Assembly (NCBI GenBank): GCA_041661605.1
Contig: JBAZUE010000001.1
Span: 66,786 to 128,483, forward strand
From: Candidatus Omnitrophota bacterium
Lineage (GTDB): Bacteria > Omnitrophota > Gorgyraeia > Gygaellales > Profunditerraquicolaceae
DNA: 61,698 nt
Direction of reading: 5' to 3'
The translations under genes and the position numbers were made by a program. The first letter of the stretch is position 1. The number at the start of each line of letters is the position of its first letter. The notes under the pieces are model-generated. The model had not been told where the DNA came from and did not search any database. It was given only the letters and a program-made list of their open reading frames with translations. Of the stretch, positions 8,360 through 29,585 are shown piece by piece.

Positions 8360-8934
8360 AGATTGGCATCTTGGGCGGGACCTTTAATCCGGTGCATATA
8401 GGCCATTTGATCCTGGCGGAAGAGGCAAGGGAGAAATTAGGGTTGGATAAGATTATTTTTATTCCGACATCCTTGCCGCCGCATAAAGATAATGTCAATA
8501 TCGCTCCGGCGGATAAAAGGATTAAGATGTTAAGCCTGGCTATCAAGGGTAATAATAATTTTGCGGTTTCAGATGTCGAGATTAGACGTAAGGGCCGGTC
8601 TTATACAATTGACACATTAAAGGAATTAAAAAGCAAATACAGCCATGACGAGCTTTATTTTATTATCGGCTCGGACCTGCTTAAATATTTAAATGAGTGG
8701 AAGGATTTAAACGAAATAATCAAGATGGTTAAATTCGTGGCGGCAACGCGGCCGGGTTTTCCGTTGGAGCAGATTCCGCATTATATCAAGACTCTGGCTA
8801 TCAGGGCAGTGGATGTTTCGGGTTTTGAGGTGAGAGAGTGCGTGAAGGAGAATAAATCGTTCCGTTATTTGGTTCCGGAGGCGGTTTTTGATTATATAAA
8901 CAAGAATAAATTATATTGTAGACAGTCTACGTAA
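8356..8934 (+). CDS. nadD: Nicotinate-nucleotide adenylyltransferase
   Basis: GILGGTFNPVHIGH, PPHK, SYTIDT and FIIGSD motifs. The last residues (CRQST*) are encoded by a 51-bp repeat. Confidence 0.95.
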   Translation: MKIGILGGTFNPVHIGHLILAEEAREKLGLDKIIFIPTSLPPHKDNVNIAPADKRIKMLSLAIKGNNNFAVSDVEIRRKGRSYTIDTLKELKSKYSHDELYFIIGSDLLKYLNEWKDLNEIIKMVKFVAATRPGFPLEQIPHYIKTLAIRAVDVSGFEVRECVKENKSFRYLVPEAVFDYINKNKLYCRQST

Positions 8935-8968
8935 CTGTTTGATAATAAATGTGTTATGAAACAAATAT
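8918..8968 (+). repeat. 51-bp bipartite repeat R1 (family 1)
   Basis: gtagacagtctacgtaac-N17-gttatgaaacaaatat. Confidence 0.85.
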
Positions 8969-9023
8969 TTATAAGAAAAATAATGTATTAAAATGAAGAA
9001 TTATTTTATTTTCTTAAACCAAA

Positions 9024-9074
9024 ATATTTCTTATATAATTGATTGTCTCGCAATAGGTTATATAGACTGTCTAC
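9024..9074 (-). repeat. 51-bp bipartite repeat R2, inverted relative to R1
   Basis: + strand reads atatttcttatataat-N17-gttatatagactgtctac. Confidence 0.8.
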
Positions 9075-9081
9075 TATTCTT

Positions 9082-9714
9082 ATGATAAAGGTTGCTCCGT
9101 CAATATTATCGGCTGATTTCAGTAATCTTGGCGCTGAACTTAAGAAAGTCCAGCGTGCGGGAGCGGATTTAATCCATGTTGATATAATGGACGGTCATTT
9201 TGTGCCGAACATTACAATCGGCCCGGTAGTGGTAAAGCATATTCGTAAGACGACCAAGCTTCCGCTGGATGTGCATTTAATGATTGAGAACCCGGCTAAG
9301 TACATAGGCGCTTTTGTTGAGGCAGGAAGCGATATGATTACCGTGCACATTGAGGTTGTCAGCCTTAAAGAATTGGCGGCTATCGCTAAAATACTTAAGA
9401 GACGAGGGGTAAAACTTGGGGTATCTTTAAATCCGGCTACCCCTTTGGCTAAAATCAAAAAAGCCTTAGCGCTGGTTGATTTTGTTCTGGTAATGTCGGT
9501 TAACCCGGGTTTTGGCGGCCAGGCTTTTATTCCGTCGGCGTTAACCAAGATACGGCAGTTGCGCGCAATCTTTAAGAAGGATATCGCCGTAGACGGAGGG
9601 ATTAATAATATTACCGGCAGGCAGGTAAAAGAGGCAGGGGCAAACGTCCTGGCAGCCGGTTCATATATTTTTGGGGCTAAGAATACAAAAAAAGCAATTA
9701 ACAGTTTAAGATAA
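9082..9714 (+). CDS. rpe: Ribulose-phosphate 3-epimerase
   Basis: MIKVAPSILSADF, HVDIMDGHFVPNIT, DVHLM, MSVNPGFGGQ and VDGG motifs. Start moved to ATG 9082. Confidence 0.95.
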   Translation: MIKVAPSILSADFSNLGAELKKVQRAGADLIHVDIMDGHFVPNITIGPVVVKHIRKTTKLPLDVHLMIENPAKYIGAFVEAGSDMITVHIEVVSLKELAAIAKILKRRGVKLGVSLNPATPLAKIKKALALVDFVLVMSVNPGFGGQAFIPSALTKIRQLRAIFKKDIAVDGGINNITGRQVKEAGANVLAAGSYIFGAKNTKKAINSLR

Positions 9715-9729
9715 GACAGGAGAGCTTAG

Positions 9730-11118: not shown

Positions 11119-11266
11119 GATGTTCTGCTACGAGAAAATTCACGTGGAAAGGGGGAGGCCTTATCAGGAAACTTCGGATCTGATAATGGCTAATATTAAA
11201 CAATTATCGAATAATTAATTATACAAAACAAATCAAATATTATCTTAAAGAAAGGAAGTTAGCGAA

Positions 11267-12811: not shown

Positions 12812-13974
12812 TGGATATAAGCAAACAAATAGAGATAATTAAAAGGGGCGCTGCGGAGATAATCTCTGAAGATGAGCTGCGCAAGAAGCTTGAGCAGAGC
12901 ATTAAAGCCGGGCGCCCCTTAAAAATCAAGGCTGGTTTTGACCCCACTGCCCCTGACCTGCATTTGGGCCACACAGTCTTATTGAGAAAACTGCGCCAGT
13001 TTCAGGATCTCGGCCATGAGGTTTATTTCTTAATCGGCGATTTTACCGGTCAAATTGGCGATCCGAGCGGCAGGTCAGAGACCCGCAAGCAGCTTTCAAA
13101 AGCAGAGGTTGCCAAGAATGCAGAGACCTATAAAAAGCAGGTAGCCAAGATTCTTGATACCTCAAAATTAAAGATAGTTTTTAACAGTAAATGGTTTGAA
13201 AAAATGTCAGTTGTAGAGTTGCTGCGTCTTACGACCCATTTATCAGTTTCTCAAATGCTTGCCCGTGATGATTTTAAAAAAAGATACACTGGAGGAGAGA
13301 ATATCTCAATTTTAGAGTTTATGTATCCTCTCATGCAGGGTTATGATTCAGTAGTTCTTGAGGCTGATGTTGAGCTGGGAGGGACTGATCAGATATTCAA
13401 TCTGTTAGTTGGCCGGGAATTCCAGAAAGATTTTAATCAGGCGCAGCAGGTGGTGTTGACCATGCCGTTATTAGAAGGCACTGATGGCGTACAGAAGATG
13501 AGCAAGTCTTATGGCAACTATATCGGTATAAATGAGCCGGCAAAAGATATGTTCGGTAAGATTATGTCGATTTCCGACGAGTTGATGCTTAAATATTATG
13601 AATTGCTCACTGATGAAGATTTAGGCTCCGTTAGGAACATGCACCCTAAGCAGGCAAAGGTAAACCTGGCCAAGATTATTATTACCCAATACCATTCGGC
13701 TCAAGCCGCGGAAAAAGAGGCAGAAGAGTTCAGCCGTGTTTTTTCCCAGAAAGAGATTCCTCAGGATATGCCGGTTTTTAAAACTGACGGGAAAAAGACC
13801 ATTCTGGCTATCCTTATTGAAAGCAGGTTGGCTGCCAGCGGCAATGAAGTCCGCAGGCTGATCAAACAGGGGGCAGTCAGTTTTAATAATATAAAAGTTG
13901 AAAAGGATGATTTTATCCCGAGTGAACCAGGCATCCTCAAGGCCGGTTCCCGCCGATTCCTTAAAGTCTTGTAG
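12811..13974 (+). CDS. tyrS: Tyrosine--tRNA ligase
   Basis: [26 protein letters not shown] and KMSKS motifs, C-terminal S4-like domain. The TAG stop lies in repeat R3. Confidence 0.97.
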
Positions 13975-14021
13975 ACAGTCTACGTAACCCCATATTCCAC
14001 AATCACATCTGTAAGAAATAT
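13971..14021 (+). repeat. 51-bp bipartite repeat R3
   Basis: gtagacagtctacgtaac-N17-catctgtaagaaatat. Confidence 0.85.
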
Positions 14022-14094
14022 TTCCCTTTCCTAAAATAATTATTGTTAGATTTTTTCACCTTTTGCGTCAATTGTAGCAGAAGGAGAGAAAACC

Positions 14095-14778
14095 ATGCCA
14101 TCATATGCACGCAAGCATCAATTGCAACAGTCCTTAGTATATCATGCATTTAGTAGAAGCAGCGGGCGCAAGGTGATTTTTCAAGAAGTAAAGGATTTTG
14201 ATCGTTTTAAATCATTGCTTTACGATTACGGCAATAGGTTTAATTCAAAGATATATCATTGGGCTATTATGCCGAATCATTACCATTTAGTGGTTGAATT
14301 CGAATGCCCTGAACTAATTTCGAAATTTATGGCAGGGTTACATCGGGCGTATAGCCATTATTACCATAAACAATATAACACGGTTGGTTTCTTATGGCAG
14401 GGTAGATTTAAATTACAGCCGATACAGAAAGATTTGTATCTGAAGAATTGCGGCAGGTATGTGGAGAGGAACCCGGTGCGTGCCGGGATAGTCAGGCAGC
14501 CCTGGGAATATGAGTATAGCAGTGCGCGATTTTATTGTTTAGGCCGCGAGGACGGGATAACGCAAGTGAGTCCTGATTATGAAGATTTTGGAAAAGAGAT
14601 TGTTTGCAGGCAAGCTGCTTATAAAAACTTTTTGAGTATTTTTGATAATAAAGAAGAGAATTATTTTGCGAATATAGAGATTCCGCGCGGCGACCGGGAC
14701 TTTCTTCGGAGGCTGGTAAAGAGCGGCGCGCATTATTTACCTAGAAGGCGGGGCAGGAAAGCCGCATTTGTTTCATAA
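14095..14778 (+). CDS. REP-associated tyrosine transposase (RAYT, Y1_Tnp HUH family)
   Basis: YHAFSRS...IF, MPNHYH (HUH motif), LWQGRF, and RYVERNPVRAG with the catalytic Tyr. Confidence 0.9.
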   Translation: MPSYARKHQLQQSLVYHAFSRSSGRKVIFQEVKDFDRFKSLLYDYGNRFNSKIYHWAIMPNHYHLVVEFECPELISKFMAGLHRAYSHYYHKQYNTVGFLWQGRFKLQPIQKDLYLKNCGRYVERNPVRAGIVRQPWEYEYSSARFYCLGREDGITQVSPDYEDFGKEIVCRQAAYKNFLSIFDNKEENYFANIEIPRGDRDFLRRLVKSGAHYLPRRRGRKAAFVS

Positions 14779-14814
14779 AGGTATATCTTTGATGGAATTA
14801 CGTACACTGTCTAC
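14764..14814 (-). repeat. 51-bp bipartite repeat R4
   Basis: gcatttgtttcataaa-N17-attacgtacactgtctac. Contains the RAYT TAA stop codon. Confidence 0.8.
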
Positions 14815-14859
14815 AATTTAGCTTTATTTCCCAAGGATTTCAGGTTATAATTATTAATT

Positions 14860-15132
14860 ATGTTTTGGACGCTGATTGGCGCAATGGCCGCCACCCTGAC
14901 CATGTTTTCATTTATCCCCCAGATAGCCAGGTGTTTAAGGACTAAATCTGTCAGGGATGTAAGCCCGGTTACTTTATTCCAGCTTTCTACCGGTGTTTTG
15001 CTCTGGATGGTTTACGGAATTTACCGCCAAGACCCCATAATCATTTTTGCCAATGCAATCACTTTAATAAGCTTGTCTATGTTGATTATTTTGTATTTTA
15101 AGTACAGCCAAAAACAAGGGGTGGATAGATGA
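14860..15132 (+). CDS. SemiSWEET / PQ-loop sugar transporter
   Basis: 90 aa, three TM helices, FIPQ motif, KSVRDVS, LWMVYG and ANAIT patterns. Confidence 0.88.
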
Positions 15133-17831: not shown

Positions 17832-17843
17832 AAGAGGGGCAAT

Positions 17844-18902
17844 ATGGCCATTGTTGTAGTTACAGGTTCATGCGGTTTAATCGGTTCTGAAACCGTAAGT
17901 TTCTTTGCCGGAAAAGGTTTTGATGTCGTCGGTATCGACAACAATATGCGCAAGAGATTTTTTGGCGCTGACGGCTCAATCCTCTGGAATAAGAAACGCC
18001 TGCAAAAGTTGTATAAAAATTACCAGCACCACTCCATAGATATCCGCCAGCAGGATAAAATAAATTCAATTTTCAGGAAATTCAGCAAAGATATCGTTTT
18101 AATCGTGCACGCCGCGGCCCAGCCATCCCATGATTGGGCAGCAAAAGACCCGGCGGTTGATTTTGGCGTTAATGCCCAGGGCACACTGGTTATGCTTGAG
18201 GCCTTGCGCAAATTTTCTCCCGGGGCGGCATTCATTTTTACCTCAACGAATAAAGTTTACGGGGATACTCCTAACCGGCTGCCTCTAATTGAAAAAGAGA
18301 AGCGCTTCGAACTACCCGCAGATCACAAATATTTTAAAGGCATTGATGAAACAATGAGCATTGACAATTGCCTGCATTCAGTTTTTGGCGCCTCAAAGTT
18401 GGCTGCGGATATTATGACACAGGAGTACGGGAAATATTTTCATCTTAAGACAGGGGTCTTTAGGGGCGGCTGCCTTACCGGACCGGCGCATTCCGGAGCC
18501 GAGCTGCACGGATTTTTGTCCTATCTGGTTAAGTGCGCTGTGACAAAACGCAAATATAAAATTTACGGCTATAAAGGCAAACAGGTCAGGGACAATATAC
18601 ATTCTTTTGATTTGGTCAACGCGTTCTATTATTATTTCCAGAATCCCCGCTATGGCGAGGTTTATAATATGGGGGGAGGCAGGTTTGGCAATGTTTCGGT
18701 GCTTGAGGCGATTGAGATGTGCGAAAAGTTGACCGGCGAGAAGTTTGATTATGAATATATCGATACTAACCGCATCGGAGATCATATCTGGTGGATCAGC
18801 GATGTCTCTAAATTTAAATCGCATTATCCTGATTGGCAGTATAAGTTTGGCATAGAGGATACAATCAAGCAGATCTACGATAATTATAGACAGTGTATGT
18901 AA
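17844..18902 (+). CDS. CDP-paratose 2-epimerase (RfbE/TyvE)-like NAD-dependent epimerase
   Basis: [38 protein letters not shown] and GYKGKQVRD motifs. The stop lies in repeat R5. Confidence 0.8.
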
Positions 18903-18936
18903 TTCTTTTAAATCTAAATAGTTAGAAAACAAATAT
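18886..18936 (+). repeat. 51-bp bipartite repeat R5
   Basis: atagacagtgtatgtaat-N17-gttagaaaacaaatat. Confidence 0.8.
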
Positions 18937-18949
18937 TACCGAACAATCC

Positions 18950-18994
18950 CGCTCCTATTTTTTTGTAGTAGGCAAAATAGGGGCGTTCTTTTTT
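18950..18994 (+). terminator. Probable intrinsic terminator
   Basis: cgctcctatttt/aaaataggggcg 12-bp stem (one G-U pair), 12-nt loop, then ttcttttttg. Confidence 0.55.
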
Positions 18995-19187
18995 GTTAGA
19001 TTTCCCCCTTTTTGAGTCTATTAATGGTAGAAAGGGGGTTAAAATGAATGATGTAGAGATTTCTGCAGAAGTTAAAGAAGAAACTTTGAGGTTGCAAAAT
19101 GCAACCTCAAAGAGAGGTGGTAGACGGTATACTCCTTATGTTTTTACCGAACAAGGCGTAGTTATACTTTCTCTCGATTCAACCTGA
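18993..19187 (+). pseudogene. ORF6N-domain remnant
   Basis: LRLQNATSKRGGRRYTPYVFTEQGV matches the C-terminal ORF6N motif and the intact paralog at 20506. The N-terminal half is missing. Confidence 0.75.
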
Positions 19188-19203
19188 ATTAACCATCGTT
19201 TAA

Positions 19204-19254
19204 ATATTTCTTTTGTAACCTTCTATCTCTGATGGAATTACGTAGACTGTCTAC
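19204..19254 (-). repeat. 51-bp bipartite repeat R6
   Basis: atatttcttttgtaac-N17-attacgtagactgtctac, the closest copy to consensus. Confidence 0.9.
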
Positions 19255-19261
19255 ATAAATG

Positions 19262-20360: not shown

Positions 20361-20402
20361 AGAATAGATCCGGCCCATAGAGTTGCGCCCTCCCTTCGCG
20401 TC

Positions 20403-20453
20403 GTATTTCTTTCCTAACTACTTATCCTTAATACAATTACGTAGACTGTCTAT
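20403..20453 (-). repeat. 51-bp bipartite repeat R7
   Basis: gtatttctttcctaac-tacttatccttaataca-attacgtagactgtctat, 48/51 identical to R8. Confidence 0.9.
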
Positions 20454-20505
20454 ACTCTAGTTAGATTTTATCTCTTGCTCCGTCTATTGGTGCAAGGAGG
20501 TTTAA

Positions 20506-21018
20506 ATGAATAAAAAAGAGATTGCGGTTGAGGTAGTGGCAACGAAGATTTTACTGGTGAGAGGCAGGAAAGTGATGTTGGATAAAGATTTAGCATTACT
20601 ATATGGAGTATCGACTATGAGATTGAATGAGCAGGTAAAAAGAAATAAAGAGAGGTTCCCTGAAGATTTTATGTTTCAACTTACAAAAGAAGAAGCTTCT
20701 AACTTGATATCGCATTTTGCGATATCAAGTTGGGGTGGTAATCGTAAATTACCGTATGTTTTTACGGAACAAGGAGTGGCTATGTTATCTAGTGTGCTGA
20801 ATTCAAAACGAGCAATCCAGGTCAATATAGCTATTATGCGTGCATTCGTGAAATTGCGGGAATTGTTATTAACACATAAGGAGCTAGCAGAAAAACTCGA
20901 GGAGTTAGAGCGTAAATATCAATTACACGAAACAGACATTCAGGCGATATTCGAAGTGATCAAAAAATTGCTTGAGCCTCCACCTGAACCACCAAAACCA
21001 CGATTTGGGTTGAATTAA
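20506..21018 (+). CDS. ORF6N domain DNA-binding protein (phage antirepressor-like)
   Basis: RGRKVMLDKDLALLYGV, LNEQVKRNKERFPEDFMFQLT, LPYVFTEQGVAMLSSVLNSKRAIQVNIAIMRAF. AAGGAGG RBS upstream. Confidence 0.92.
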   Translation: MNKKEIAVEVVATKILLVRGRKVMLDKDLALLYGVSTMRLNEQVKRNKERFPEDFMFQLTKEEASNLISHFAISSWGGNRKLPYVFTEQGVAMLSSVLNSKRAIQVNIAIMRAFVKLRELLLTHKELAEKLEELERKYQLHETDIQAIFEVIKKLLEPPPEPPKPRFGLN

Positions 21019-21028
21019 GAGACCTGCT

Positions 21029-21079
21029 GTATTTCTTTCGTAACTACTTATCCTTAATGCAATTACGTAGACTGTCTAC
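21029..21079 (-). repeat. 51-bp bipartite repeat R8
   Basis: gtatttctttcgtaac-tacttatccttaatgca-attacgtagactgtctac. Confidence 0.9.
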
Positions 21080-21090
21080 TATACTAATTA

Positions 21091-21119
21091 TTGACATAAA
21101 TATGGGATGTAGGTAGAAT
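21091..21119 (+). promoter_or_regulatory. sigma70-type promoter
   Basis: TTGACA (21091-96), 17-bp spacer, TAGAAT (21114-19). Confidence 0.7.
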
Positions 21120-21143
21120 ATAAATGTAATCAGATTTTAAAAT

Positions 21144-21929
21144 ATGCCTATCAAATTCTCGCTTGGCTGTTTTAAAGATCCAATAGACTCCCGCGATATC
21201 CCCATGGGGCTAGTTTTACCCATAATCCCAATCCCCGTAAGTTTTGACTTCACCAAATTAATGAGCCCGGTTAGAAATCAAGGAAACGAAGGGACTTGTG
21301 TTGCTTTTGCTTCGGTTGTTGGTGTTAAGGAATTTCAGGATAAAAAAGAATATCGTAAACTCATCAAGCTTTCCCCGCGTTTTCTTTATAATCTGTGCAA
21401 GAAATTTGACGGCGCTCCATTTGAAGAAGGCACTTATCCGCGTATCGCGATGAAGGTGTTATTAAATCACGGTGTTTGCCATGAATCTTTATGGCCGTAT
21501 GCTCCGCATCAAAAAAGCCTTCCCTTAAAAGGCGCAGATAAAGACGCGAAGAAGTTTAAGATCAAGGCCTATGCCCGGCTTAACTCGCAGCTTGAAATGA
21601 AACGCAGCCTCGTCGTAAATGGTCCTTTTCTTGCCGGAGTAAATGTATATAAATCCTGGTTTAATAAAAGTGTAGAGAAAAACGGTTTTGTCCCTATGCC
21701 CAAACGCAATGAAAAACTGATGGGAGGGCATGCCATTTGCATTGTTGGCTATGATGATAAGTTCAAAGTTTTTAAGTTTAAGAATTCCTGGGGCGCAAAA
21801 TGGGCGGATAGGGGTTATGGGTATCTGCCATATGAATATATCAAGAAATATTGCAGCGATGCCTGGAGCGCCACGGATTTAATTGAAAACCCGAAAGCCT
21901 TGGTCAAATCAATGCAGGCTTCAATGTAG
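21144..21929 (+). CDS. Papain-like C1 family cysteine peptidase
   Basis: VRNQGNEGTCVAF (oxyanion Gln and catalytic Cys), LSPRFLY, GGHAICIVGY (His), KNSWG (Asn) and WADRGYGYLPY. Confidence 0.9.
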   Translation: MPIKFSLGCFKDPIDSRDIPMGLVLPIIPIPVSFDFTKLMSPVRNQGNEGTCVAFASVVGVKEFQDKKEYRKLIKLSPRFLYNLCKKFDGAPFEEGTYPRIAMKVLLNHGVCHESLWPYAPHQKSLPLKGADKDAKKFKIKAYARLNSQLEMKRSLVVNGPFLAGVNVYKSWFNKSVEKNGFVPMPKRNEKLMGGHAICIVGYDDKFKVFKFKNSWGAKWADRGYGYLPYEYIKKYCSDAWSATDLIENPKALVKSMQASM

Positions 21930-21938
21930 GAGGTGGAT

Positions 21939-22103
21939 ATGGATAATGAAGGCGGATTCTTGGTTAAGTTTGACGGAAAAAAGTCTCTTCGCTGCTACAA
22001 GATAGAATTTGACTATGACGAATGGCAATATATCGTTAACGGGACAGAAAAGAAAGAACTGCCTCCTTGTGTAAAAAATATAACTATTAAAGTAGAGGGG
22101 TAA
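21939..22103 (+). CDS. Unannotated 54-aa hypothetical protein
   Basis: AGGAGG RBS overlapping the peptidase stop. ATG 21939 to TAA 22103 encodes MDNEGGFLVKFDGKKSLRCYKIEFDYDEWQYIVNGTEKKELPPCVKNITIKVEG, below the ORF-track cutoff. Confidence 0.65.
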   Translation: MDNEGGFLVKFDGKKSLRCYKIEFDYDEWQYIVNGTEKKELPPCVKNITIKVEG

Positions 22104-22130
22104 TAATCTGCGCAGGTGGTGGAACATTAA

Positions 22131-22181
22131 GTATTTCTTTTGTAAGTATATATTGTTTATGAGGTTACATAGACTGTCTAT
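22131..22181 (-). repeat. 51-bp bipartite repeat R9
   Basis: gtatttcttttgtaag-N17-gttacatagactgtctat. Confidence 0.85.
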
Positions 22182-22190
22182 GAATATGAC

Positions 22191-22248
22191 TTGACAAAGT
22201 GTAGTTTATCGTGCATACTTGTTTCTGTAGATATATAAAATTATATAT
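22191..22248 (+). promoter_or_regulatory. abiE promoter and candidate autoregulatory inverted repeat
   Basis: TTGACA (22191-96), 17-bp spacer, CATACT (22214-19). Perfect inverted repeat atatataa-aa-ttatatat at 22231-48. Confidence 0.55.
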
Positions 22249-22256
22249 ATAAAGAA

Positions 22257-22898
22257 ATGAAGCTTACAGAATTTGTTAAAAAATACAGCAAGGAACAGGT
22301 TATTGATTCTTCAACCTTTTCTTTGCTTGGCGAGGATCCGCAGAATATCCGCTGCCAGGTACAATATTGGCGCAGGCAGGGGCACCTTATTCTGCTTAAG
22401 CGCGGAGTTTACGTCTTAAGCAATGACCTTAGAAAACAGCCGTTATCTATGGGGTTTATTTCAAACTTTTTATTTTCGCCATCATATATCAGCCTTGAGT
22501 ATGCCTTGAGTTATTATGATTTAATCCCGGAGGCAGCAATGGTTTATACTTCTGTTTCAACTAAGAAAACAACAAAATTTAATACTCCTTTGGGAGTTTT
22601 TGAATACCGTTCAATCAAGGAAGAACTTTTTTTTGGGTTTACTAAAGCAACGGATGAAGGGCAGAATTATTTTATTGCTTATCCCGAGAAAGCGATCCTG
22701 GATTTTTTCTATTTTCATCAAGATATGGATGGAAGCGAGAGCGAATTTGAATCCTATAGGTTTCAAAACCTGGAAAGCCTGAATTTAAAGCGTTTTAATG
22801 AATTTAGAGGTAAATATAATAAGAAAACTAATGATATTGCTCGGTCATTCGCCGGTTTTATTAAATCAGGCAAGATGAGGTATAAAACACTTAGATGA
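22257..22898 (+). CDS. abiEi: Type IV TA antitoxin AbiEi-like
   Basis: N-terminal wHTH (LILLKRGVY), SYISLEYALSYYDLIPE and IAYPEKAILD. Overlaps the downstream nucleotidyltransferase gene. Confidence 0.82.
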   Translation: MKLTEFVKKYSKEQVIDSSTFSLLGEDPQNIRCQVQYWRRQGHLILLKRGVYVLSNDLRKQPLSMGFISNFLFSPSYISLEYALSYYDLIPEAAMVYTSVSTKKTTKFNTPLGVFEYRSIKEELFFGFTKATDEGQNYFIAYPEKAILDFFYFHQDMDGSESEFESYRFQNLESLNLKRFNEFRGKYNKKTNDIARSFAGFIKSGKMRYKTLR

Positions 22899-23701
22899 GA
22901 GATTACATTAAATCAGTTGTTGATCCTAATTTGACGCGAAATCAAAACCTTAACCGAATCAGGGAATATTTGCAGACATATTTCCTTAATATTATCTATA
23001 AAAATAAATTTTATCAAAATCTTGTTTTTACGGGCGGGACCGCTTTACGGTTTATTTACAAGATCAGGCGGTTTTCCGAGGATCTTGATTTCAGTTTGTC
23101 AGCCAAGGCCAGGAATTATAATTTTACCGATATGGTGGAGAATATCTTACAGGAGTTTAAGTTAGCCGGATACGATCTGGAGATTAAATATGATGAAAGC
23201 CGCGCCGTGCACAGCGCTTTATTGAAATTCTCAGGTATTCTTTTTGAAACCGGCTTGAGCCCTTTGAAAGGGCAGAAAATTGCCATTAAGGCGGAGGTTG
23301 ATTCCAACCCGCCTTTGGGTGGAATTGAAACCAGCAGTGTGTATAATTCAAATTTTATGTTTTATATGCTGCACTATGATTTAGCTTCTTTATTTGCCGG
23401 TAAAGTGCACGCGCTTTTATGCCGTGAGTACACTAAGGGCAGGGATTGGTATGATTTGTTATGGTATCTGACAAAATTTAAAGACTTAGAGCCGAATTTT
23501 ATTATGCTCAATAACGCTTTTGCTCAGACATCCCGGAAGCCGGTTAAGCTTACCGTTGATAACTGGAAAGCAGAAATCAAGAAAACCGTGGAAACTTTAG
23601 ACTGGGCAAAGGTCAGAAATGATGTCAGTTGGTTACTTGAGGATAGCAGTGAGCTTGGCTTGCTTGAGTCAAAAACTTTCGTCAATTTGCTTAAAGAATA
23701 A
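22895..23701 (+). CDS. abiEii: Type IV TA toxin AbiEii nucleotidyltransferase
   Basis: FTGGTAL, RFSEDLDF, KVHALL and KGRDWYD motifs. Confidence 0.9.
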   Translation: MRDYIKSVVDPNLTRNQNLNRIREYLQTYFLNIIYKNKFYQNLVFTGGTALRFIYKIRRFSEDLDFSLSAKARNYNFTDMVENILQEFKLAGYDLEIKYDESRAVHSALLKFSGILFETGLSPLKGQKIAIKAEVDSNPPLGGIETSSVYNSNFMFYMLHYDLASLFAGKVHALLCREYTKGRDWYDLLWYLTKFKDLEPNFIMLNNAFAQTSRKPVKLTVDNWKAEIKKTVETLDWAKVRNDVSWLLEDSSELGLLESKTFVNLLKE

Positions 23702-23722
23702 TTCACAAATCAGAAATACGTA

Positions 23723-23773
23723 ATATTTCTTTCGCAACCGCTTAATTTTGATAGGATTACGTACACTGTCTAT
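23723..23773 (-). repeat. 51-bp bipartite repeat R10
   Basis: atatttctttcgcaac-N17-attacgtacactgtctat. Confidence 0.85.
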
Positions 23774-23779
23774 TGAGAT

Positions 23780-24553
23780 ATGATTAAGCCAAAGGATACC
23801 CTGCGTAAACGTTTTATCGCCGCTGAATCCGACTATCTCGTTATTGAAACCATTCAAACATTGTCATCGCGAGGCTGCCAAGGGCAGCCGAAGCAATCTC
23901 GTCTCCGTATCCTCAAGCTTAAAGGCACCTGGCACGCCAATGATTATAATGAACTTTGCTTTGAAGTTACCTTGCGCAAAGGCCCGCCTGAAACCTATAC
24001 CTTTAAAGGAAGCTGGAAGTTAAACAACAACCAGCAGATTGAATATACAACTGAAGATGGCCGCGATACTTTAACTTTTAAAGGTTGTTGGGATATATCT
24101 TCGGCTAATCGCCTTGTTTATATACTTGAAGGCAGCTCAACCTCGCGCTTTGAATTCAAAGTCCAGCTTGAATCACCAGTAGTCTATCCTAAAAAAGGAG
24201 AGATCCGCTATCGTATCGGCATAGGAATCCGCCAAAGCCACCTGACCGCACCTGGCCAGTTACTTATTCTCTACGGAGAATGGAGGTTTGGCCGCAATTT
24301 AGGGCTTACCTTTCAGATGTATTATGGCCAGGGGGTGGTTAGGGCAATAGAGTTTGGGGCAGAGGTTACCTTTGGCCGCAATAAGGCTATTTTCGCGCTC
24401 AAAAATGAGTTTGGTAAGTCTTTAGGTATAACTCTCACCATGACGCATAAATTCTTAGAACATTTTGACGCTGAAGCCTTTATCAAACTGAAATCCCGTC
24501 ACAATGAACATAGCGAACAGGCAATAGAAGTCGGAATCACCATTCCGTTTTAG
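23780..24553 (+). CDS. Hypothetical beta-rich protein with GxW repeats
   Basis: 257 aa with four [LF]xGxW units and a C-terminal Phe. A decayed paralog lies at 29584-30311. Confidence 0.7.
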   Translation: MIKPKDTLRKRFIAAESDYLVIETIQTLSSRGCQGQPKQSRLRILKLKGTWHANDYNELCFEVTLRKGPPETYTFKGSWKLNNNQQIEYTTEDGRDTLTFKGCWDISSANRLVYILEGSSTSRFEFKVQLESPVVYPKKGEIRYRIGIGIRQSHLTAPGQLLILYGEWRFGRNLGLTFQMYYGQGVVRAIEFGAEVTFGRNKAIFALKNEFGKSLGITLTMTHKFLEHFDAEAFIKLKSRHNEHSEQAIEVGITIPF

Positions 24554-24574
24554 AATTAAACAAAACTTGCTCAA

Positions 24575-24625
24575 GTGTTTCTTTTGTAACCACCTAGTAT
24601 TAATGAGATTACGTGCGCTGTCTAT
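24575..24625 (-). repeat. 51-bp bipartite repeat R11
   Basis: gtgtttcttttgtaac-N17-attacgtgcgctgtctat. Confidence 0.8.
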
Positions 24626-24725
24626 GATTTTATGATTTTTACAATTTTAGGATTTGTGGTATTATAGAGATTAATTGGAAGTAGATTGAGAATTGTAGAG
24701 ATTGGTAAACAATTAGTCGAACTAA

Positions 24726-26354
24726 GTGGAAAATTTAATTAAAAATAATCAGTATAACATAGGTCATATCTGTACAAGGTTGCAGTGCGAAATTGGCAAT
24801 GCAGATAAGATTTCGATGCGTTGGATAACTCCGGATATGCAGCATGTCGATTATAGCTTTAATGATCTTGAAGACCAATCAAACAAATGTGCAAATGTTT
24901 TGCAATCACTAAGTCTCTCCAAGGGCGATATTATGTTTACCCTTCTTCCTAAAATACCTGAGCAGTTCTTTGTCTTATTGGGCGCGCTAAAATTACAGCT
25001 TATCGTCAGTCCATTATTTGCCAATTTCGGAGAAGAAGCCATACTTGATCGGATGGGTGATGCATGCGCTAAGGTATTGGTCACTAAAAAGAGCTTTTTA
25101 AGAAAGATCGAAAAGATAAAAAACCATTTGTTTCACTTAAAGTACGTAATCGTTGTTGATAGCGAAAGTGATTTGCCGTCTGACGTTTTAAGTTACCCGG
25201 CATTGATAAAAAATGCGAAAAGTGTTTTTGAAACTCCGCTAACCGGTAAAGATACACCGTCTCTTTTACATTATACTTCAGGCTCGACAGGAAAACCGAA
25301 AGGCGTTCTACATGTCCATGGTGGCATAATTACCATTAATCAGACAACAAAAGAAATACTGGGTCTCAAAGAAAACGATAAATATTGGTGTACTGCTGAT
25401 CAAGGATGGGTTACGGGAACGTCATATGGCATGATAGGGCCGTGGAGCCTGGGAATTACCCAGATCCATTTTAGCGGTCAATACAGTCCGGGAATATGGT
25501 TTACGATATTAGAAAAAGAGAAGATAAATGTCTGGTATACGGCGCCTACAGCGCTCAGAATGCTAATGAAAGAGGACTCCGCACTCTTCAAGAAATTTAA
25601 TCTGAAGGAGCTGCGACACATCTGTAGCGTCGGCGAGCCGCTGAATCCTGAAGTCATAAACTGGTCGCGCAAAATATTGGCTAAAGAGACCTACGATACG
25701 TGGTTTATGACTGAAACCGGAGCGATCATGATCGCTAACCGTCTCGGTATTGATGTAAAGCCTGGCTCCATGGGAAAGCCGATCGAAGGCATGGAAGTGG
25801 CTATTCTTACTGATAAAGGGGAGCTGGCTCAGAGTAATCAGCGCGGTATTTTATGTTTAAAAGCAGGATGGGAATCTATGTTCGTTACCTATCTTAATAA
25901 CGAGGAAGCTTATAAACAAAAGTTCAAGGATGGCTACTATTATTCCGGGGATGTTGCTTTTATGGATAAGGAAGGATATTATTGGTTTGCTGGGCGGAAG
26001 GACGATGTTATTAACACTGCCGGCCATCTTGTAGGGCCTTTTGAGGTTGAGAGCGCGTTACTTGAAATCGAAGAGGTAGAGGAGGTGGCTGTGATCGGCG
26101 CATCCGATGAAATACTATACGAAAAGATAGTGGCATTTATCAAGCTAAAATCAGGTAATATTTATAATAAAGAGCTGGAGCTTAAGATTCAGGTACACAT
26201 CGCTAACAAGGTGTCAACAATAGCTGTTCCGCAGGATATTGTGGTTGTAGAGGGCATCCCAAAGACCAGGAGCGGCAAGATTATGAGAAGGGTGCTGAAG
26301 GCGCAGTATCTGGGCCAGGATGCAGGCGACCTTTCAACTATGGAGGAATTCTAG
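24726..26354 (+). CDS. AcsA-like acetate/acyl--CoA (or carrier protein) ligase, AMP-binding family
   Basis: YTSGSTGKPKG, WCTADQGW, SVGEPLNP, DTWFMTETG and TRSGKIMRR motifs. Confidence 0.85.
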   Translation: MENLIKNNQYNIGHICTRLQCEIGNADKISMRWITPDMQHVDYSFNDLEDQSNKCANVLQSLSLSKGDIMFTLLPKIPEQFFVLLGALKLQLIVSPLFANFGEEAILDRMGDACAKVLVTKKSFLRKIEKIKNHLFHLKYVIVVDSESDLPSDVLSYPALIKNAKSVFETPLTGKDTPSLLHYTSGSTGKPKGVLHVHGGIITINQTTKEILGLKENDKYWCTADQGWVTGTSYGMIGPWSLGITQIHFSGQYSPGIWFTILEKEKINVWYTAPTALRMLMKEDSALFKKFNLKELRHICSVGEPLNPEVINWSRKILAKETYDTWFMTETGAIMIANRLGIDVKPGSMGKPIEGMEVAILTDKGELAQSNQRGILCLKAGWESMFVTYLNNEEAYKQKFKDGYYYSGDVAFMDKEGYYWFAGRKDDVINTAGHLVGPFEVESALLEIEEVEEVAVIGASDEILYEKIVAFIKLKSGNIYNKELELKIQVHIANKVSTIAVPQDIVVVEGIPKTRSGKIMRRVLKAQYLGQDAGDLSTMEEF

Positions 26355-26356
26355 TA

Positions 26357-26593
26357 ATGGACGTCAGGGATAAAATGAACGGGATATTCCGGGAAGTTTT
26401 CAATGACGATACCATACAAATAAAGCCCGAAACGACAGCTAATGACATTGAAGGCTGGGATTCGTTTTCGCATGTTACTCTTATTACAGCTATTGAAATA
26501 AGGTTTAATATAAAGTTTAGCATAAAGGAGTTTATGTCTTTTAAGAGCGTAGGGGATTTAATTAGGTGCATTGAGCGAAAAGTAGTAGTTTAA
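26357..26593 (+). CDS. Acyl carrier protein
   Basis: 78 aa, acidic, with the IEGWDSFSHV phosphopantetheine-Ser motif. Confidence 0.88.
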   Translation: MDVRDKMNGIFREVFNDDTIQIKPETTANDIEGWDSFSHVTLITAIEIRFNIKFSIKEFMSFKSVGDLIRCIERKVVV

Positions 26594-26623
26594 TTATCTT
26601 AATAAAGAAAGTAGAAGCCCGCC

Positions 26624-28066
26624 ATGCTATTTAAATTTATACAATTTTTAGTATTTTTTGCAGCCGTCTATATCCCATATCTTTTCCTCAATCATAAATG
26701 GCAGAATAGGCTGCTTCTTGTAGCAAGCTGCATATTTTACGCTGCCTGGGACTGGAGATTTATATTTCTGATATTCGTTTCGATAACTATTGATTACTTC
26801 TGCGGATTAAGGATCGATAAGTCGGACAACGACAAAGTAAGGAAGTATTTTTTATTATTAAGCATATTTGTAAATCTCTCTATCCTTGGTTTTTTCAAGT
26901 ATTTTAACTTCTTCATAGCTAATTTTTCCCGGCTTATAAATCATCTCGGGTTTTCCATACATCCGCAGATGCTTAATATACTACTGCCTTTGGGCATTTC
27001 TTTCTATACGTTTAAGACCATAAGCTATACCATTGATGTCTATACGGAGAAGATCAAGCCTACCAGAAGCTACCGGGATTACGCGCTCTTTGTAAGTTTC
27101 TTTCCGCTTATTCTGGCGGGGCCCATCATGAGGGCAGGGGATCTTCTTCGCCAAATAGCATCTCCGCGCAAGGTGCAGCTCGAAGGGTTCTACAAGGAGG
27201 GCTGCTATCTTATATTTTGGGGGGGATTCCAAAAATTTTTTGTTGCGGATAATTTAGCTATAATAGCTAATAAGTTATTTAATCCATCACCGCCATATAA
27301 CGGTATCATGGTTCTTTTGGCAGCCTATGCTTTTGCATTTCAAATATATTGCGACTTTGCCGGGTATTCTAATATAGCCAGAGGCTTGGGTAAATGCATG
27401 GGCTTTGATATTATGGTCAATTTTAACTTACCCTATTTTGCCACAAATCCCCAAGATTTTTGGAACAGGTGGCATATTTCCCTGTCAAATTGGCTACGCG
27501 AGTACCTTTACAATCCTATCTCTTTTAGCCTGAGACGGTGGGGTGTCTGGGGGGTAAGCATTGCTTTGATGGCCACGTTCCTTCTTTGCGGGCTTTGGCA
27601 TGGCGCATACTGGAATTATATTATATGGGGAGGGTACTGGGGGATACTGCTTATATCATATGCACTACTCAGGCCTTTGCTTGCAAAGATTCCTAATCCC
27701 AAAAAAGCCATATTTCAAAAGGTATGGTTTTTTATAAGAGTCATATTTTTCTTTCATGTCATATGCTTTGGATGGGTCATCTTCAAGGCGGAGGGGAATG
27801 CAACTAAAGCTTTCAGTATGCTGCAAAGTTTATTTTGTAATTTCCATTGGGGCAGAGGAGTTGACATAAAATATAGTGCTATGGGCATGATTTCATTTTT
27901 ATGGTTGTTAGGGATCGTCGAGATAGTGCAATATTGGAAGAATGATCCAATGGTAGTTTATAAATCCAACAGTATATTAAAGGTGTGTTTTTGTATTCTA
28001 TGCCTTTATTTGCTATTATCGTGCGGAGTTGCTAGTGAGGGAAGTTTTATTTACTTTCAATTTTAA
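26624..28066 (+). CDS. MBOAT O-acyltransferase (AlgI/DltB type)
   Basis: LPLGISFYTF, YCDFAGYS, FWNRWHISLSNWLREY and GLWHGA (catalytic His). Confidence 0.93.
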   Translation: MLFKFIQFLVFFAAVYIPYLFLNHKWQNRLLLVASCIFYAAWDWRFIFLIFVSITIDYFCGLRIDKSDNDKVRKYFLLLSIFVNLSILGFFKYFNFFIANFSRLINHLGFSIHPQMLNILLPLGISFYTFKTISYTIDVYTEKIKPTRSYRDYALFVSFFPLILAGPIMRAGDLLRQIASPRKVQLEGFYKEGCYLIFWGGFQKFFVADNLAIIANKLFNPSPPYNGIMVLLAAYAFAFQIYCDFAGYSNIARGLGKCMGFDIMVNFNLPYFATNPQDFWNRWHISLSNWLREYLYNPISFSLRRWGVWGVSIALMATFLLCGLWHGAYWNYIIWGGYWGILLISYALLRPLLAKIPNPKKAIFQKVWFFIRVIFFFHVICFGWVIFKAEGNATKAFSMLQSLFCNFHWGRGVDIKYSAMGMISFLWLLGIVEIVQYWKNDPMVVYKSNSILKVCFCILCLYLLLSCGVASEGSFIYFQF

Positions 28067-28171
28067 GAAACTTCCCAAGGCTGCAACAATAGATATTTAT
28101 AAATACTATTAAGTGAGGATGGGTTATGGTTTTTATTGATAATGTTCTTCAGGATTTAAGGTATTTGGGGT

Positions 28172-29158
28172 TTGAGAATGCTTAAAGCTTCGTTTAAGAT
28201 TTTGGTTTTTTATATTATACTTCCCCTGATGGTCGTTGAGTTGTTGCTCCGATTGTTTAATCCCATCTACTTTTGTAGTACTGTATTTCAATTCCGCTAT
28301 GATAAAGACGTTGGAGTAACTACAAGACCTAATTTAAATAAAAGCATTTTGACTGATCATGTAATTGAAGCCCTTACCAATGACATAGGCTCAAGGAATT
28401 ATTTAAACAAAGCAGAGTTGAACAGTTATAAAAAACTTATTTTTTGCGTTGGTGATTCTTATACCGAGGGAATAGGCGGACTCACGGATCAAAGTTATAC
28501 TTTTTATTTGGATTTGCTATTAAATAATAAGAGTGGAATATACGAGAAAAATTTTGCCGTTGTTAATCTTGGATTAGGAGGATATGGTTCTATACAATCA
28601 GAACTTACGGTTTTGCAGTATGTAAGAATATTTGGGAGGGTACCAGACGCAATCATTTATTTTGTCGCTAACAACGACTGTGGCGATGATGCGTCTTATG
28701 AGCTTGGTTTTTTTCATAGGTTTGTTGTATTGGGTAGTCCCTATTACAATCGCATAACTATAATGATAAACGAACTTTTAGAAAATACTCAAGTTTGGCG
28801 AAGGTTCAAATTGCTGATTAGTCCAACAGTACATAAAAACTTTTCCCCGGCAGAAAGTGATGAGATATGCTCGCCAGAGAATTTGAGTGGTTTGAAAGCT
28901 TTGATAAAATTCGCAAGAGACAACAATATCAAGTTAATAATCTCTCATACTGGTTATACCGGAGTTGGGTATGATTTATTTAAGAGTTTTGCAAAAGAAA
29001 ATAAGATTCCATTTGCAGATTATAAGCCTGATGTAATAAGCATAAGTACAGCCAACCCAAGGCTGCCTGTATTTAACAGTCATTCAGGAGGGCATTATCG
29101 TTCTTGGGTATACTATATTGTTGCAGGTAAGTTTGCTGAGTTTTTTAAAGATAATTAA
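28172..29158 (+). CDS. SGNH/GDSL-fold acyltransferase/esterase
   Basis: N-terminal TM, VGDSYTEG (block I), NLGLGGYG (II), ANND (III) and GGHY (His). Confidence 0.75.
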   Translation: MRMLKASFKILVFYIILPLMVVELLLRLFNPIYFCSTVFQFRYDKDVGVTTRPNLNKSILTDHVIEALTNDIGSRNYLNKAELNSYKKLIFCVGDSYTEGIGGLTDQSYTFYLDLLLNNKSGIYEKNFAVVNLGLGGYGSIQSELTVLQYVRIFGRVPDAIIYFVANNDCGDDASYELGFFHRFVVLGSPYYNRITIMINELLENTQVWRRFKLLISPTVHKNFSPAESDEICSPENLSGLKALIKFARDNNIKLIISHTGYTGVGYDLFKSFAKENKIPFADYKPDVISISTANPRLPVFNSHSGGHYRSWVYYIVAGKFAEFFKDN

Positions 29159-29309
29159 CAAAATCAAAATATAATATTATTTCGTTAAGATTTTCCCATT
29201 CAAAAAGAGAAACAAGGGAGGGACTTAATCGTTCAGTCCTTTTTGTCTTGTGCCAAAAATGTGCCTATCTTATACAGAAACACTCGTTAACAAACCGTAA
29301 TAAAACTAA

Positions 29310-29360
29310 ACAACCGGACTGTATAACTCATTGATAATATAAATGTTTGTATAGAATGTT
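29310..29360 (+). repeat. Possible highly degenerate 51-bp repeat (R12)
   Basis: acaaccggactgtataac-tcattgataatataaat-gtttgtatagaatgtt, about 29/51 identical to R1 by eye with the same box geometry. Confidence 0.35.
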
Positions 29361-29407
29361 CTTTTAACGACGAGAGTTAGGGAAATACGCTTGACAGAAT
29401 TCTTGCA

Positions 29408-29530
29408 TATTGGCGAGAACTTAAGGAGCGGTTGTAAAACGAGGATAGAGAAGTCGTGACATTTTGTCACGGGTTGAAACTGAAGGCTTCTGATAGAAGA
29501 TTGCGTGAAGCCGATTGTGCCACCTTATGA
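29408..29530 (+). pseudogene. Bro-N/phage antirepressor-like remnant
   Basis: Translates YWRELKERL*NEDREVVTFCHGLKLKASDRRLREADCATL*, resembling the YWxxLKxRL...V.FCHGLKL.A.DG..R..D.A motif of Bro-N-like proteins. Internal stop, no start. Confidence 0.6.
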
Positions 29531-29534
29531 TTTA

Positions 29535-29585
29535 GAATTTGTTTTGTGACTAGCTGACAATTATGAAATTATGTATACTGTCTAT
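29535..29585 (-). repeat. 51-bp bipartite repeat R13
   Basis: gaatttgttttgtgac-N17-attatgtatactgtctat. Confidence 0.75.

Follow-up and report, generated by a model that had tools for sequence, protein, structure and literature searches.

A 51-bp repeat that recurs 12 times in the window (the whole stretch of 61,698 nucleotides of a Candidatus Omnitrophota genome analysed here) is likely to form the arms, that is, the terminal repeats, of a domesticated-type RAYT/TIRYT Y1 HUH transposase that is vertically inherited in this uncultured Omnitrophota genus. The system of arms and RAYT is an unusual, non-hairpin version of a known partnership between repeats and a transposase. Below we describe the arms, the RAYT and its relation to the arms across relatives, the genes that lie between the arms, and the recognition of the arms in comparison with known systems.

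The arm family in the window and the genome

Each arm consists of two boxes at a fixed distance (16-bp box 1, 17 bp, 18-bp box 2; Table 1). The 12 copies and this geometry, reported in a preliminary description of the same DNA, were verified at every coordinate, as was the lack of copies from 1 to 8.9 kb and beyond 29.6 kb of the window, the next arm on the contig being ~100 kb away; the strand labels given in that description were swapped and are corrected in Table 1, and the palindrome GTAGAC-N-GTCTAC described there is not conserved, being complete in only 4 of the 12 window copies. Box 2 was matched 12 times versus 0.01 times expected from dinucleotide-preserving shuffles. When half-sites were scanned on three low-GC contigs without forcing the spacing, the boxes were exactly 17 bp apart in 36 of 38 paired cases and 18 bp apart in one. 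The window copies are part of a larger family: the whole genome holds 38 arms in two subfamilies, with tips that read ...ACTGTCTAC in family 1 and ...A(A/G)CGTCTTR in family 2. GTAG at the arm tip is confined to family 1, while family 2 has YAAG instead and CGTC near the tip. Chimeric arms and whole-arm swaps were also seen, no point-mutated fossil arms were found, and no target motif could be made out in the flanks of the arms, which show only weak A-richness.

Table 1 Features of the window (positions in nucleotides; for arms, the strand is that on which the consensus reads as written)
Feature	Position	Strand	Remark
Arm, family 1, left member of tips-outward doublet 8918-9074	8918..8968	-	GTAG tip is the stop codon of a nadD-like gene
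Arm, family 1, right member of doublet 8918-9074	9024..9074	+	Directly upstream of rpe
Arm upstream of RAYT	13971..14021	-	Variant box 1 TTACAGAT; TAG of the arm is the tyrS stop
RAYT/TIRYT-type Y1 HUH transposase gene	14095..14778	+	227 aa
Arm over the last 15 bases of RAYT	14764..14814	+	RAYT stop TAA within box 1; right end of the RAYT unit
RAYT unit	13971-14814		844 bp, arm to arm
Arm, left member of pair 18886-19254	18886..18936	-	Gives the stop of the epimerase gene 17844-18902
Inner part of pair 18886-19254			267 bp; fragment resembling an ORF6N gene
Arm, right member of pair 18886-19254	19204..19254	+	Opens the co-oriented array
Solo arm before ORF6N	20403..20453	+	47/51 identical to the arm after ORF6N
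Module: ORF6N-domain protein	20506..21018	+	Other contexts in G019, G027 and G021
Solo arm, gap between ORF6N and papain-like gene	21029..21079	+
Modules: papain-family protease (21144-21929) and conserved 54-aa ORF (21939-22103)	21144..22103	+
Solo arm, gap between 54-aa ORF and AbiEi/AbiEii module	22131..22181	+
Module: AbiEi/AbiEii toxin-antitoxin pair	22257..23701	+
Solo arm after AbiEii	23723..23773	+	6 bases ahead of the start of a 257-aa gene of unknown function
Solo arm ahead of dlt-like operon	24575..24625	+
Module: dltA/dltC/dltB/dltD-like operon (AMP-binding, PP-binding, MBOAT, GDSL)	24726..29158	+	Low G+C
Final solo arm of the array	29535..29585	+	Ahead of a frame-shifted 257-aa gene paralogue

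Arms occur as the ends of RAYT units, as short doublets (MITE- or REPIN-like) and as solo arms, which make up 22 of the 38 genome-wide copies. All adjacent inverted pairs (30/30) are oriented tips-outward. Close relatives differ in whether they carry individual tips-outward doublets of 118-126 bp, as illustrated by a 118-bp doublet polymorphism between genes 5 bp apart, with flanks that are 96% identical (G030), and by a doublet polymorphism between pgm and S1 (L046). Such differences show that the doublet is mobile as a unit, with the direction of each change, gain or loss, inferred. No target-site duplication was found, also at the cleanest doublet insertion, the junction of which is ambiguous because the two genomes compared differ by 4%. 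Solo arms, too, are gained or lost between species within the rml operon. They are wedged in tiny intergenic gaps, often donating a stop codon, and all 22 occupy the same absolute strand throughout both replichores, without a flip at the terminus. A replication-fork-linked mechanism of the IS200/IS605 type does not predict such one-strand placement; a replication-linked (IS608-like) orientation is thus unsupported, the solo arms keeping their strand past the terminus.

The RAYT and its arms across relatives

The inverted pair at 13971 and 14764 does enclose a RAYT, as had been noted from the letters: the open reading frame matches Pfam Y1_Tnp (PF01797) over residues 13-126 (E=2e-15; 57.4 bits, cut-off 23), placing the protein in this family. 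The genome contains only one other Y1_Tnp gene (C1:44618-45331; 54-56 bits); the two are 53% identical, represent one single-copy gene per clade, and each is flanked tips-outward by its own arm subfamily. The RAYT carries H62-Y63-H64, a predicted catalytic Y122 in RYVERNP, and LWQGRF, and the HUH, Tyr (RYxERNP) and LWQGRF motifs are invariant among 28 homologues. These are followed by a C-terminal helical extension of ~100 aa with a basic PRRRGRK tail, in which no Pfam HTH (Bac_DnaA_C, HTH_23, HTH_28) was detected even at E up to 10. With an AF2 model of the protein (pLDDT 77), the best Foldseek match was 4ER8, a structure of E. coli RAYT in complex with REP (E=1.4e-6, TM (target) 0.67), followed by ISDra2 and IS608 TnpA (E about 3e-4); a sequence-level PDB search gave no match. 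Among NCBIfam models, NF047646 (REP-associated tyrosine transposase) scored highest with 61.3 bits, which is below its equivalog cut-off of 80, and the IS200 model scored 24.6 bits.

Relatives of the ~228-aa RAYT clade number more than 4000 in Omnitrophota at E<=1e-10. Close homologues were examined in about 20 genomes, and all of these have arms at their borders, usually with an inverted arm ~73 bp upstream of the RAYT and a direct arm across its stop codon. The RAYT is single-copy and vertically inherited at a fixed locus, with the order tyrS, RAYT, then PQ-loop-rml syntenic in at least nine species; the exceptions are G027 and G010, where the RAYT lies within the array and follows a direct arm, to the tip of which it is joined. 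The tip matches the enzyme: clade 1 RAYTs (>=77% identity) go with CTGTCTA and clade 2 RAYTs (50-57%) with CGTCT, and this holds in each flanked locus in which an arm was detected. Arms and close RAYTs also co-occur, as the preliminary description had proposed should be examined: of 61 relatives, 20 have both, 36 have neither, 4 have arms without a close RAYT, and 1 has a RAYT without arms as defined by the search pattern (Fisher p=3e-11, uncorrected for phylogeny), and a backwards-pattern control gave 0-1 matches. Because these are draft genomes, the discordant ones are weak counter-evidence. Finally, in orthologues of the 13971 arm from 10 species the majority frequency is 0.94 for box 1 and 0.97 for box 2 versus 0.6-0.7 in the flanks, documenting that orthologous arms are conserved above their surroundings. 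Judged from the bordering arms of every close homologue, the match between clade and tip, and the co-occurrence, the earlier suggestion that the repeats are the cognate sites of this RAYT is probably correct.

Genes between the arms and alternative explanations

The preliminary description further proposed that the repeats define mobile modules and represent a new gene-mobilisation system. For 8.9-19 kb the first proposal fails: the genes there (rpe, pgm, S1, tyrS, and the rml genes) are resident, syntenic in at least eight species, and diverge like core genes. For 19-30 kb it stands in part, with arm tips as recurrent junctions. Here, arms are interspersed in an accessory array that has been shuffled (ORF6N, papain-like, AbiE, dlt); its modules occur in other orders and combinations in G008, G012, G019, G021, G025, G027, and G029, where most junctions have arms. 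In this array arms mark module borders, and they may help to create them. As to novelty, systems of this kind are already known as TIRYT/TIRtrons (PMC3733652), and mobilisation is only partly evidenced.

This array invites the alternative that the arms and RAYT form an HUH-based cassette platform, in which co-oriented arms would be attC-like sites and the RAYT would replace a tyrosine recombinase. Cuts made by the RAYT in one strand, at the tips of two direct arms, would set free a module plus one arm as a single-stranded circle, which would be reinserted at another arm; 19-30 kb would be an actively shuffled cassette array, with even the RAYT's own gene as cargo. Such an integron analogue would also account for whole-arm swaps at a single site. 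It is in line with the seven co-oriented arms that part small accessory modules, toxin-antitoxin pairs included, with the differing order and combination of modules in the seven relatives, with the near-identity of the two arms around ORF6N, which extends to the spacer, and with the tip-joined RAYTs of G027 and G010. In addition, a BrnT/BrnA module of 656 bp, consisting of the genes plus one arm, marks a presence/absence difference from a 92%-identical relative, with borders precisely at the arm tips; however, slippage or recombination between 17 identical bases of the direct arms would produce such a deletion equally well. The AbiE module speaks on both sides. Its DNA is 90-93% identical to that of G019 and G012 versus 72-88% for core genes, showing recent transfer; yet its left border has no arm in two of three genomes (G012 and G019), and the arm after AbiE is only ~70-78% identical while the module is 91% identical. 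The arm therefore appears not to have travelled with AbiE, joint travel being unsupported. Moreover, several junctions have no arm (papain-like gene to 54-aa ORF, and ORF6N to 54-aa ORF in G021), and a search of the genome for array modules at other, unrelated loci with bounding arms yielded none but the local paralogue of the 257-aa gene; the one other contig that carries this AbiEii protein is arranged likewise. The resident genes between the arms at 9-19 kb also count against cassettes, and variable polysaccharide and defence islands shuffle without a dedicated enzyme. Overall, we consider the cassette platform unlikely. Gene mobilisation by the arms and RAYT is nevertheless possible, as far as genome comparison goes, in view of the tip-to-tip difference at BrnT/BrnA and of the two species whose RAYT follows a direct arm.

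We also considered that the arms are regulatory or architectural sites of the host (operators, promoters, or sites for a host protein), with the proximity of the RAYT reflecting regulation and not catalysis. The fixed bipartite geometry, the lack of a fold, the two strongly conserved boxes of orthologous arms, and the missing point-mutated fossils would all suit such sites, as would the many + arms that end 3-8 bases ahead of a start codon. Right-replichore arms, however, run antisense to genes and have their tip at the stop codon; they therefore cannot be promoters there, and sigma-70 hexamers at the right spacing are poorly matched; a sigma-70 or ECF-type promoter was accordingly rejected, TTGTAA-N17 falling on RTTAC. 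Host sites would also not explain why arm presence tracks the RAYT clade, why the tip switches with the RAYT paralogue, why doublets and solo arms are inserted or missing between close relatives, or why all pairs point tips-outward as transposon ends do. These observations render a host function of the arms highly improbable. We give least credence to conventional double-strand transposon ends moved by, e.g., a DDE-type transposase with the Y1 gene as cargo. Cut-and-paste elements do typically have long terminal inverted repeats (51 bp here) and MITE-like doublets, but full arm pairs (14 cases, inner distance ~740-780 bp) were never seen to enclose any gene other than the Y1 gene, the tip co-varies with the Y1 clade, and no target-site duplication was seen.

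Proposed recognition of the arms and relation to known systems

We therefore return to the arms as terminal repeats of the RAYT. The preliminary description had suspected a bipartite protein-binding end rather than a classical REP, and this was borne out by folding and covariation. In 15 of 16 strands, the arms showed no more folding than their shuffled versions (z mostly -0.3 to +1.3); among 110 distinct arms, positions 42 and 48 pair in 29% without compensation, and the pair 12-38 shows no covariation. A classical REP hairpin was thus rejected, neither the box-2 palindrome nor a GTAAC/GTTAC mini-stem showing compensatory change. We suggest that the enzyme reads both boxes at their fixed distance by sequence, not via a hairpin. 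In this view, box 2 and the tip would be the substrate of the catalytic domain, and recognition of the AT-rich box 1 would fall to the helical domain and basic tail at the C terminus. One strand would be nicked and rejoined at or beside the tip (...GTCT|AC), where genome comparisons place the putative cleavage point; this step would move doublets and make tips recurrent recombination junctions.

To our knowledge, all Y1 transposases studied so far recognise folded DNA, and the tested RAYT-type examples need a hairpin. Given this mode of recognition, the absence of a hairpin counts against the explanation that we prefer.

RAYT-like genes with dispersed families of terminal inverted repeats (TIRs) have been described as TIRYT/TIRtrons (Di Nocera et al. 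2013, PMC3733652) and equated with TnpA-Y1 subclass 2.1 (Quentin et al. 2018, PMC6006769). The arms resemble these inverted repeats more than classical REPs: the Y1 gene is longer than classical RAYTs, and the long, non-REP terminal inverted repeats are also dispersed as singles, dimers and clusters, as in TIRtrons (PMC3733652). In contrast, the arms lack GGGGWSAS, the motif of most TIRs (the RAYT-proximal arm has GGGGAATA), and the ~100-aa extension has no Pfam-detectable HTH of the kind that marks subclass 2.1. The strict 16-17-18 geometry, the two co-evolving enzyme/arm pairs within one genome, and the phylum (we found no paper on Omnitrophota in the literature searched) also set the present system apart.

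With the REPtron of E. coli (TnpA-REP/YafM and REP/BIME; PMC3333891, PMC3479197, PMC8266576), the RAYT of which cleaves and rejoins single-stranded DNA adjacent to the REP (PMC8266576), the system shares a Y1 HUH gene that is inherited vertically in a single copy and has a dispersed repeat, in inverted copies, at its borders, GTAG at the outer end of family-1 arms, and a predicted fold closest to 4ER8. However, the arms are non-palindromic and form no stem-loop, they have 51 bp with two boxes in about 38 copies versus hundreds, family 2 deviates at the tip, and the NCBIfam RAYT score is below cut-off. As in REPINs (Bertels and Rainey 2011, PMC3116915), the inverted doublet is the varying unit and depends on a single-copy RAYT, and its presence or absence in close relatives identifies it as the replicating unit, subject to the direction of change assumed above. 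REPINs, however, are two hairpin REPs that form one long hairpin, while here tips-outward arms are 14-57 bp apart and solo arms prevail.

IS200/IS605 elements (IS608, ISDra2) share the Y1 HUH catalytic fold, and their transposition without target duplication would suit the junctions seen; in contrast, their ends are subterminal hairpins in direct arrangement and the elements are multi-copy with fork-linked orientation, while here the ends are inverted and non-hairpin, the gene is single-copy and the solo arms are strand-fixed. Integrons and CALINs likewise have co-oriented repeats between small promoter-poor modules, toxin-antitoxin pairs included, and precise gain or loss of one module with one repeat, but the arms are not attC-like imperfect palindromes and module borders are not always at arms. 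No integron integrase was found; the three chromosomal PF00589 genes (tyrosine recombinases; C1, 390, 659, and 776 kb) lie 260-650 kb from the window, which is at 67-128 kb. An attC/IntI system was rejected: there is no nearby integrase, R''/R' are half-matched, and the 31 bp between putative core sites are too short.

Because the arms are sharp, non-folding and bipartite and because two enzyme/arm pairs coexist in a 1.1-Mb genome, this system is a clean natural experiment for hairpin-free recognition, and it serves equally to locate the cleavage point. It extends the RAYT/TIRYT partnership to the Omnitrophota, a poorly studied phylum, and shows how repeats find room in genomes with almost no gaps, where they donate stop codons and take the place of gene junctions. 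Were the cassette reading true, bacteria would have a second, mechanistically independent route to cassette arrays.

A fixed bipartite repeat that does not fold

The repeat, here called an arm, comprises a 16-bp box 1, a 17-bp spacer and an 18-bp box 2, the outer end of which is the tip. In the 1.27-Mb draft assembly (the window is C1:66786-128483, C1 being contig JBAZUE010000001.1), the 18-bp box matched 12 window sites at three or fewer mismatches versus 0.01 expected from shuffles. The 12 copies of the preliminary description hold up, as all 12 sites align gap-free over 51 bp; its strand labels were swapped, the written consensus lying on the + strand in nine copies and on the - strand at 8918, 13971 and 18886. 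With separate half-site matrices and the spacing left free, the boxes lay exactly 17 bp apart in 36 cases and 18 bp apart in one; because 17 bp was recovered almost throughout, the fixed geometry is real. A position matrix applied to the whole genome placed 37 arms above 20 bits, against about one site at 0-20 bits; an additional arm with an 18-bp spacer lies at C1 217527. C1 carries every arm of the genome, 16 in eight inverted pairs and the other 22 solo, and these fall into two subfamilies, with consensus ATATTTSTTTYGTAAC-N17-RTTACRTAnACTGTCTAY for family 1 and AGAATTGTTTTGTAAC-N17-GTTAYATAAARCGTCTTR for family 2. Chimeric arms at C1 198053 and 200987 join a box 1 of family-2 type to a family-1 box 2. 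Given a G+C content of 0.42 in C1-C3 versus 0.63-0.69 in C4-C8, only C1-C3 look like the organism's own contigs; C4-C8 (five contigs without arms, 152 kb in all) are probably bin contamination. The names that homologues carry point to Candidatus Omnitrophota.

All 22 solo arms lie on the + strand of C1, on both sides of the terminus at ~340 kb, where the GC skew switches cleanly and genes change strand. On the left side of the terminus, tips stand ahead of the start codon of the following gene; on the right side they overlap the stop codon of the gene before. The related genomes G008 and G013 share this arrangement. This one-strand pattern is predicted by no replication- or transcription-linked rule. 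The gene-strand bias of C1 is very strong, with >90% co-oriented with replication.

Single-stranded DNA folding of 16 arm strands gave 0 to -4.4 kcal/mol, with z-scores mostly from -0.3 to +1.3 and one below -3. Among 110 distinct arms, the palindrome GTAGAC-N-GTCTAC put forward in the preliminary description breaks down at pair 42-48, where only 29% are paired and position 42 varies freely, and the short inverted repeat GTAAC/GTTAC lacks compensatory change at 12-38 and is 31% paired at 16-34. Weak folding and unpaired, uncompensated candidate stems rule out a hairpin. The arms are thus bipartite sites defined by sequence, as had been proposed in preference to a classical REP hairpin.

Two enzymes and their arms

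Exactly two Y1_Tnp genes occur in the genome, each between arms of one family (see table). In an alignment of 28 homologues, H62-Y63-H64, Y122 in RYxERNP and the LWQGRF motif are invariant; the aligned proteins also share a ~100-aa C-terminal extension with a basic PRRRGR(P/K) stretch at its end, in which no HTH is detectable. The AlphaFold model of the RAYT (pLDDT 77) best matches 4ER8, E. coli RAYT in complex with a REP hairpin (E=1.4e-6), followed by ISDra2 and IS608 TnpA; in NCBIfam the RAYT model is the top match, yet at 61 bits versus a cut-off of 80.

Among 61 related genomes, 24 were arm-positive (at least three arm matches; 0-1 for a backwards-pattern control) and 21 had a close RAYT homologue (E<1e-60). 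The anticipated co-occurrence of motif and RAYT clade is borne out: arms and enzyme occur together in 20 genomes, arms only in 4, the enzyme only in 1 and neither in 36 (Fisher p=3e-11, ignoring phylogeny), and within the genus p=7e-6, again ignoring phylogeny. At nearly all of ~20 homologue loci, an inverted arm lies ~73 bp upstream of the gene while its stop codon is covered by a direct arm, and tips read CTGTCTA at all homologues at least 77% identical and CGTCT at all those at 50-57%. Adjacent inverted arms <1 kb apart point tips outward in 30/30 cases in the sequences compared and inward in none, with an inner distance of ~740-780 bp (the enzyme gene) in 14 and of 14-57 bp in 14. CGTC is present in family-2 tips (e.g. 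C1 45290-45340), and such arms flank the RAYT paralogue here; it is also the tag of a REP super-family reported by Di Nocera et al. without a dedicated transposase, and sameness of the two is hypothetical.

Enzyme genes and array features
Feature	Coordinates	Remarks
RAYT	window 14095-14778	227 aa; between family-1 arms 13971(-) and 14764(+)
Second Y1_Tnp gene	C1:44618-45331	237 aa, 53% identical to window RAYT; between family-2 arms 44486(-) and 45290(+)
Module: epimerase		
Module: ORF6N protein		
Module: papain-like protease + conserved 54-aa ORF		54-aa ORF at window 21939-22103
Module: AbiEi/AbiEii		own sigma-70-like promoter TTGACA-N17-CATACT, window 22190-22256
Module: 257-aa protein	window 23780-24553	function unassigned
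Module: dltA-C-B-D-like operon	window 24726-29158	dltA / dltC / dltB (MBOAT) / dltD-like (GDSL)
dltC	window 26357-26593	78-aa PP-binding ORF
Paralogue of 257-aa gene	window 29591-30332	frame-shifted; ~73% aa identity

Resident genes and variable arms

All genomes compared are drafts, and at each arm polymorphism we infer gain versus loss. The order nadD-like gene, doublet (two close inverted arms, tips outward), rpe-pgm-S1-tyrS, arm-RAYT-arm and PQ-loop-rmlA-rmlD-rmlB-epimerases is kept in G008, G012, G016, G019, G021, G025 and G029 and in two metagenome contigs. RAYT DNA is 78-82% identical to its orthologues, similar to adjacent core genes. In 10 species the RAYT-proximal arm is conserved above its flanks, with majority frequencies of 0.94 in box 1, 0.85 in the spacer and 0.97 in box 2 and of 0.60-0.70 in the flanks. 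The genes between arms at window 8.9-19 kb are not mobile: they belong to the core, keep their synteny and have diverged as other genes have. In G016 (L033, G016:C39 about 8780-9070) a direct duplication of ~66 bp, made up of the overlapping nadD end and rpe start, flanks the nadD/rpe doublet and leaves both genes intact.

The arms themselves vary. In G030 a family-2 doublet of 118 bp separates two genes spaced 5 bp here, the flanks being 96% identical. A contig with a RAYT 96% identical to ours (the 96% relative) carries a family-2 doublet in the pgm/S1 gap, of which this genome retains only a 13-base box 1 remnant. Within the rml operon, solo arms occupy the rmlB/epimerase gap in G008, G021 and G025, the rmlD/rmlB gap in G021 (both gene ends rebuilt) and the PQ-loop/rmlA gap in G008 and the 96% relative. 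At C1 595020 a family-2 arm stands here and family-1 arms at exactly that site in G030 and G008. In G010 and G027 the RAYT follows a direct arm behind ORF6N, with the arm tip joined midway into the usual RAYT leader. At C1 217527-217735, outside the window, a family-2 doublet precedes a family-1 arm's final 14-18 bases, and 9 bp are duplicated; the G030 counterpart is an intact family-1 arm. It looks as if arms serve as targets for further arms.

The accessory array and gene mobilisation

At window 19.2-29.6 kb, seven co-oriented arms separate the modules of the table, which recur in different orders and groupings in seven species, with junctions mostly, not always, at arms. The AbiE DNA is 90-93% identical to that of G019 and G012 and the core genes 72-88%, and this excess points to a recent transfer. 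The left border of AbiE in G012 and G019 is its own promoter rather than an arm, and the following arm is far less similar than the module. The promoter is conserved in three species, and interspecies AbiE homology begins exactly there. In the 96% relative the order is RAYT-arm-[BrnT/BrnA module]-arm-PQ-loop, here RAYT-arm-PQ-loop. The two differ by 656 bp, exactly from one tip to the next, and the last 17 bases are common to both arms; the difference can also result from recombination or slippage between those 17 identical bases. Given the AbiE border away from arms, the diverged arm and the slippage alternative, an HUH-driven cassette platform is possible but unproven, and we consider it unlikely. 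The evidence for gene mobilisation by the RAYT/arm system is partial: the earlier proposal that arms define mobile modules fails at 8.9-19 kb and is upheld in part in the array.

The dlt genes form a single 5-kb low-G+C block between two arms; in an Omnitrophota genome of diderm type, genes of the D-alanylation type would not be expected. The 257-aa gene and its paralogue each directly follow an arm, so that the block is bracketed twice by an arm and that gene. The 54-aa ORF has a strong ribosome-binding site, no match in Pfam, and 76-77% DNA identity in G008, G019 and G021 in differing neighbourhoods. Inside the arm pair 18886-19254 (267-bp interior), positions 19079-19172 are 80% identical to part of the G021 ORF6N gene and are apparently a decayed module.

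The nearest published description is TIRYT/TIRtron, RAYT-like genes between long non-REP inverted repeats that are also dispersed as singles, dimers and clusters (PMC3733652). This class has been equated with subclass 2.1, whose enzymes have a C-terminal extension (PMC6006769); the published TIR motif GGGGWSAS and HTH profiles were not found here. In the literature consulted, we found no paper mentioning Omnitrophota together with RAYT/TIRYT. We conclude that this is a real, well-defined repeat system of RAYT/TIRYT type, a variant and not the new kind of system first suggested; its kind is already known, and what is new are the non-folding fixed bipartite arms, the two enzyme/arm pairs and the occurrence in Omnitrophota.
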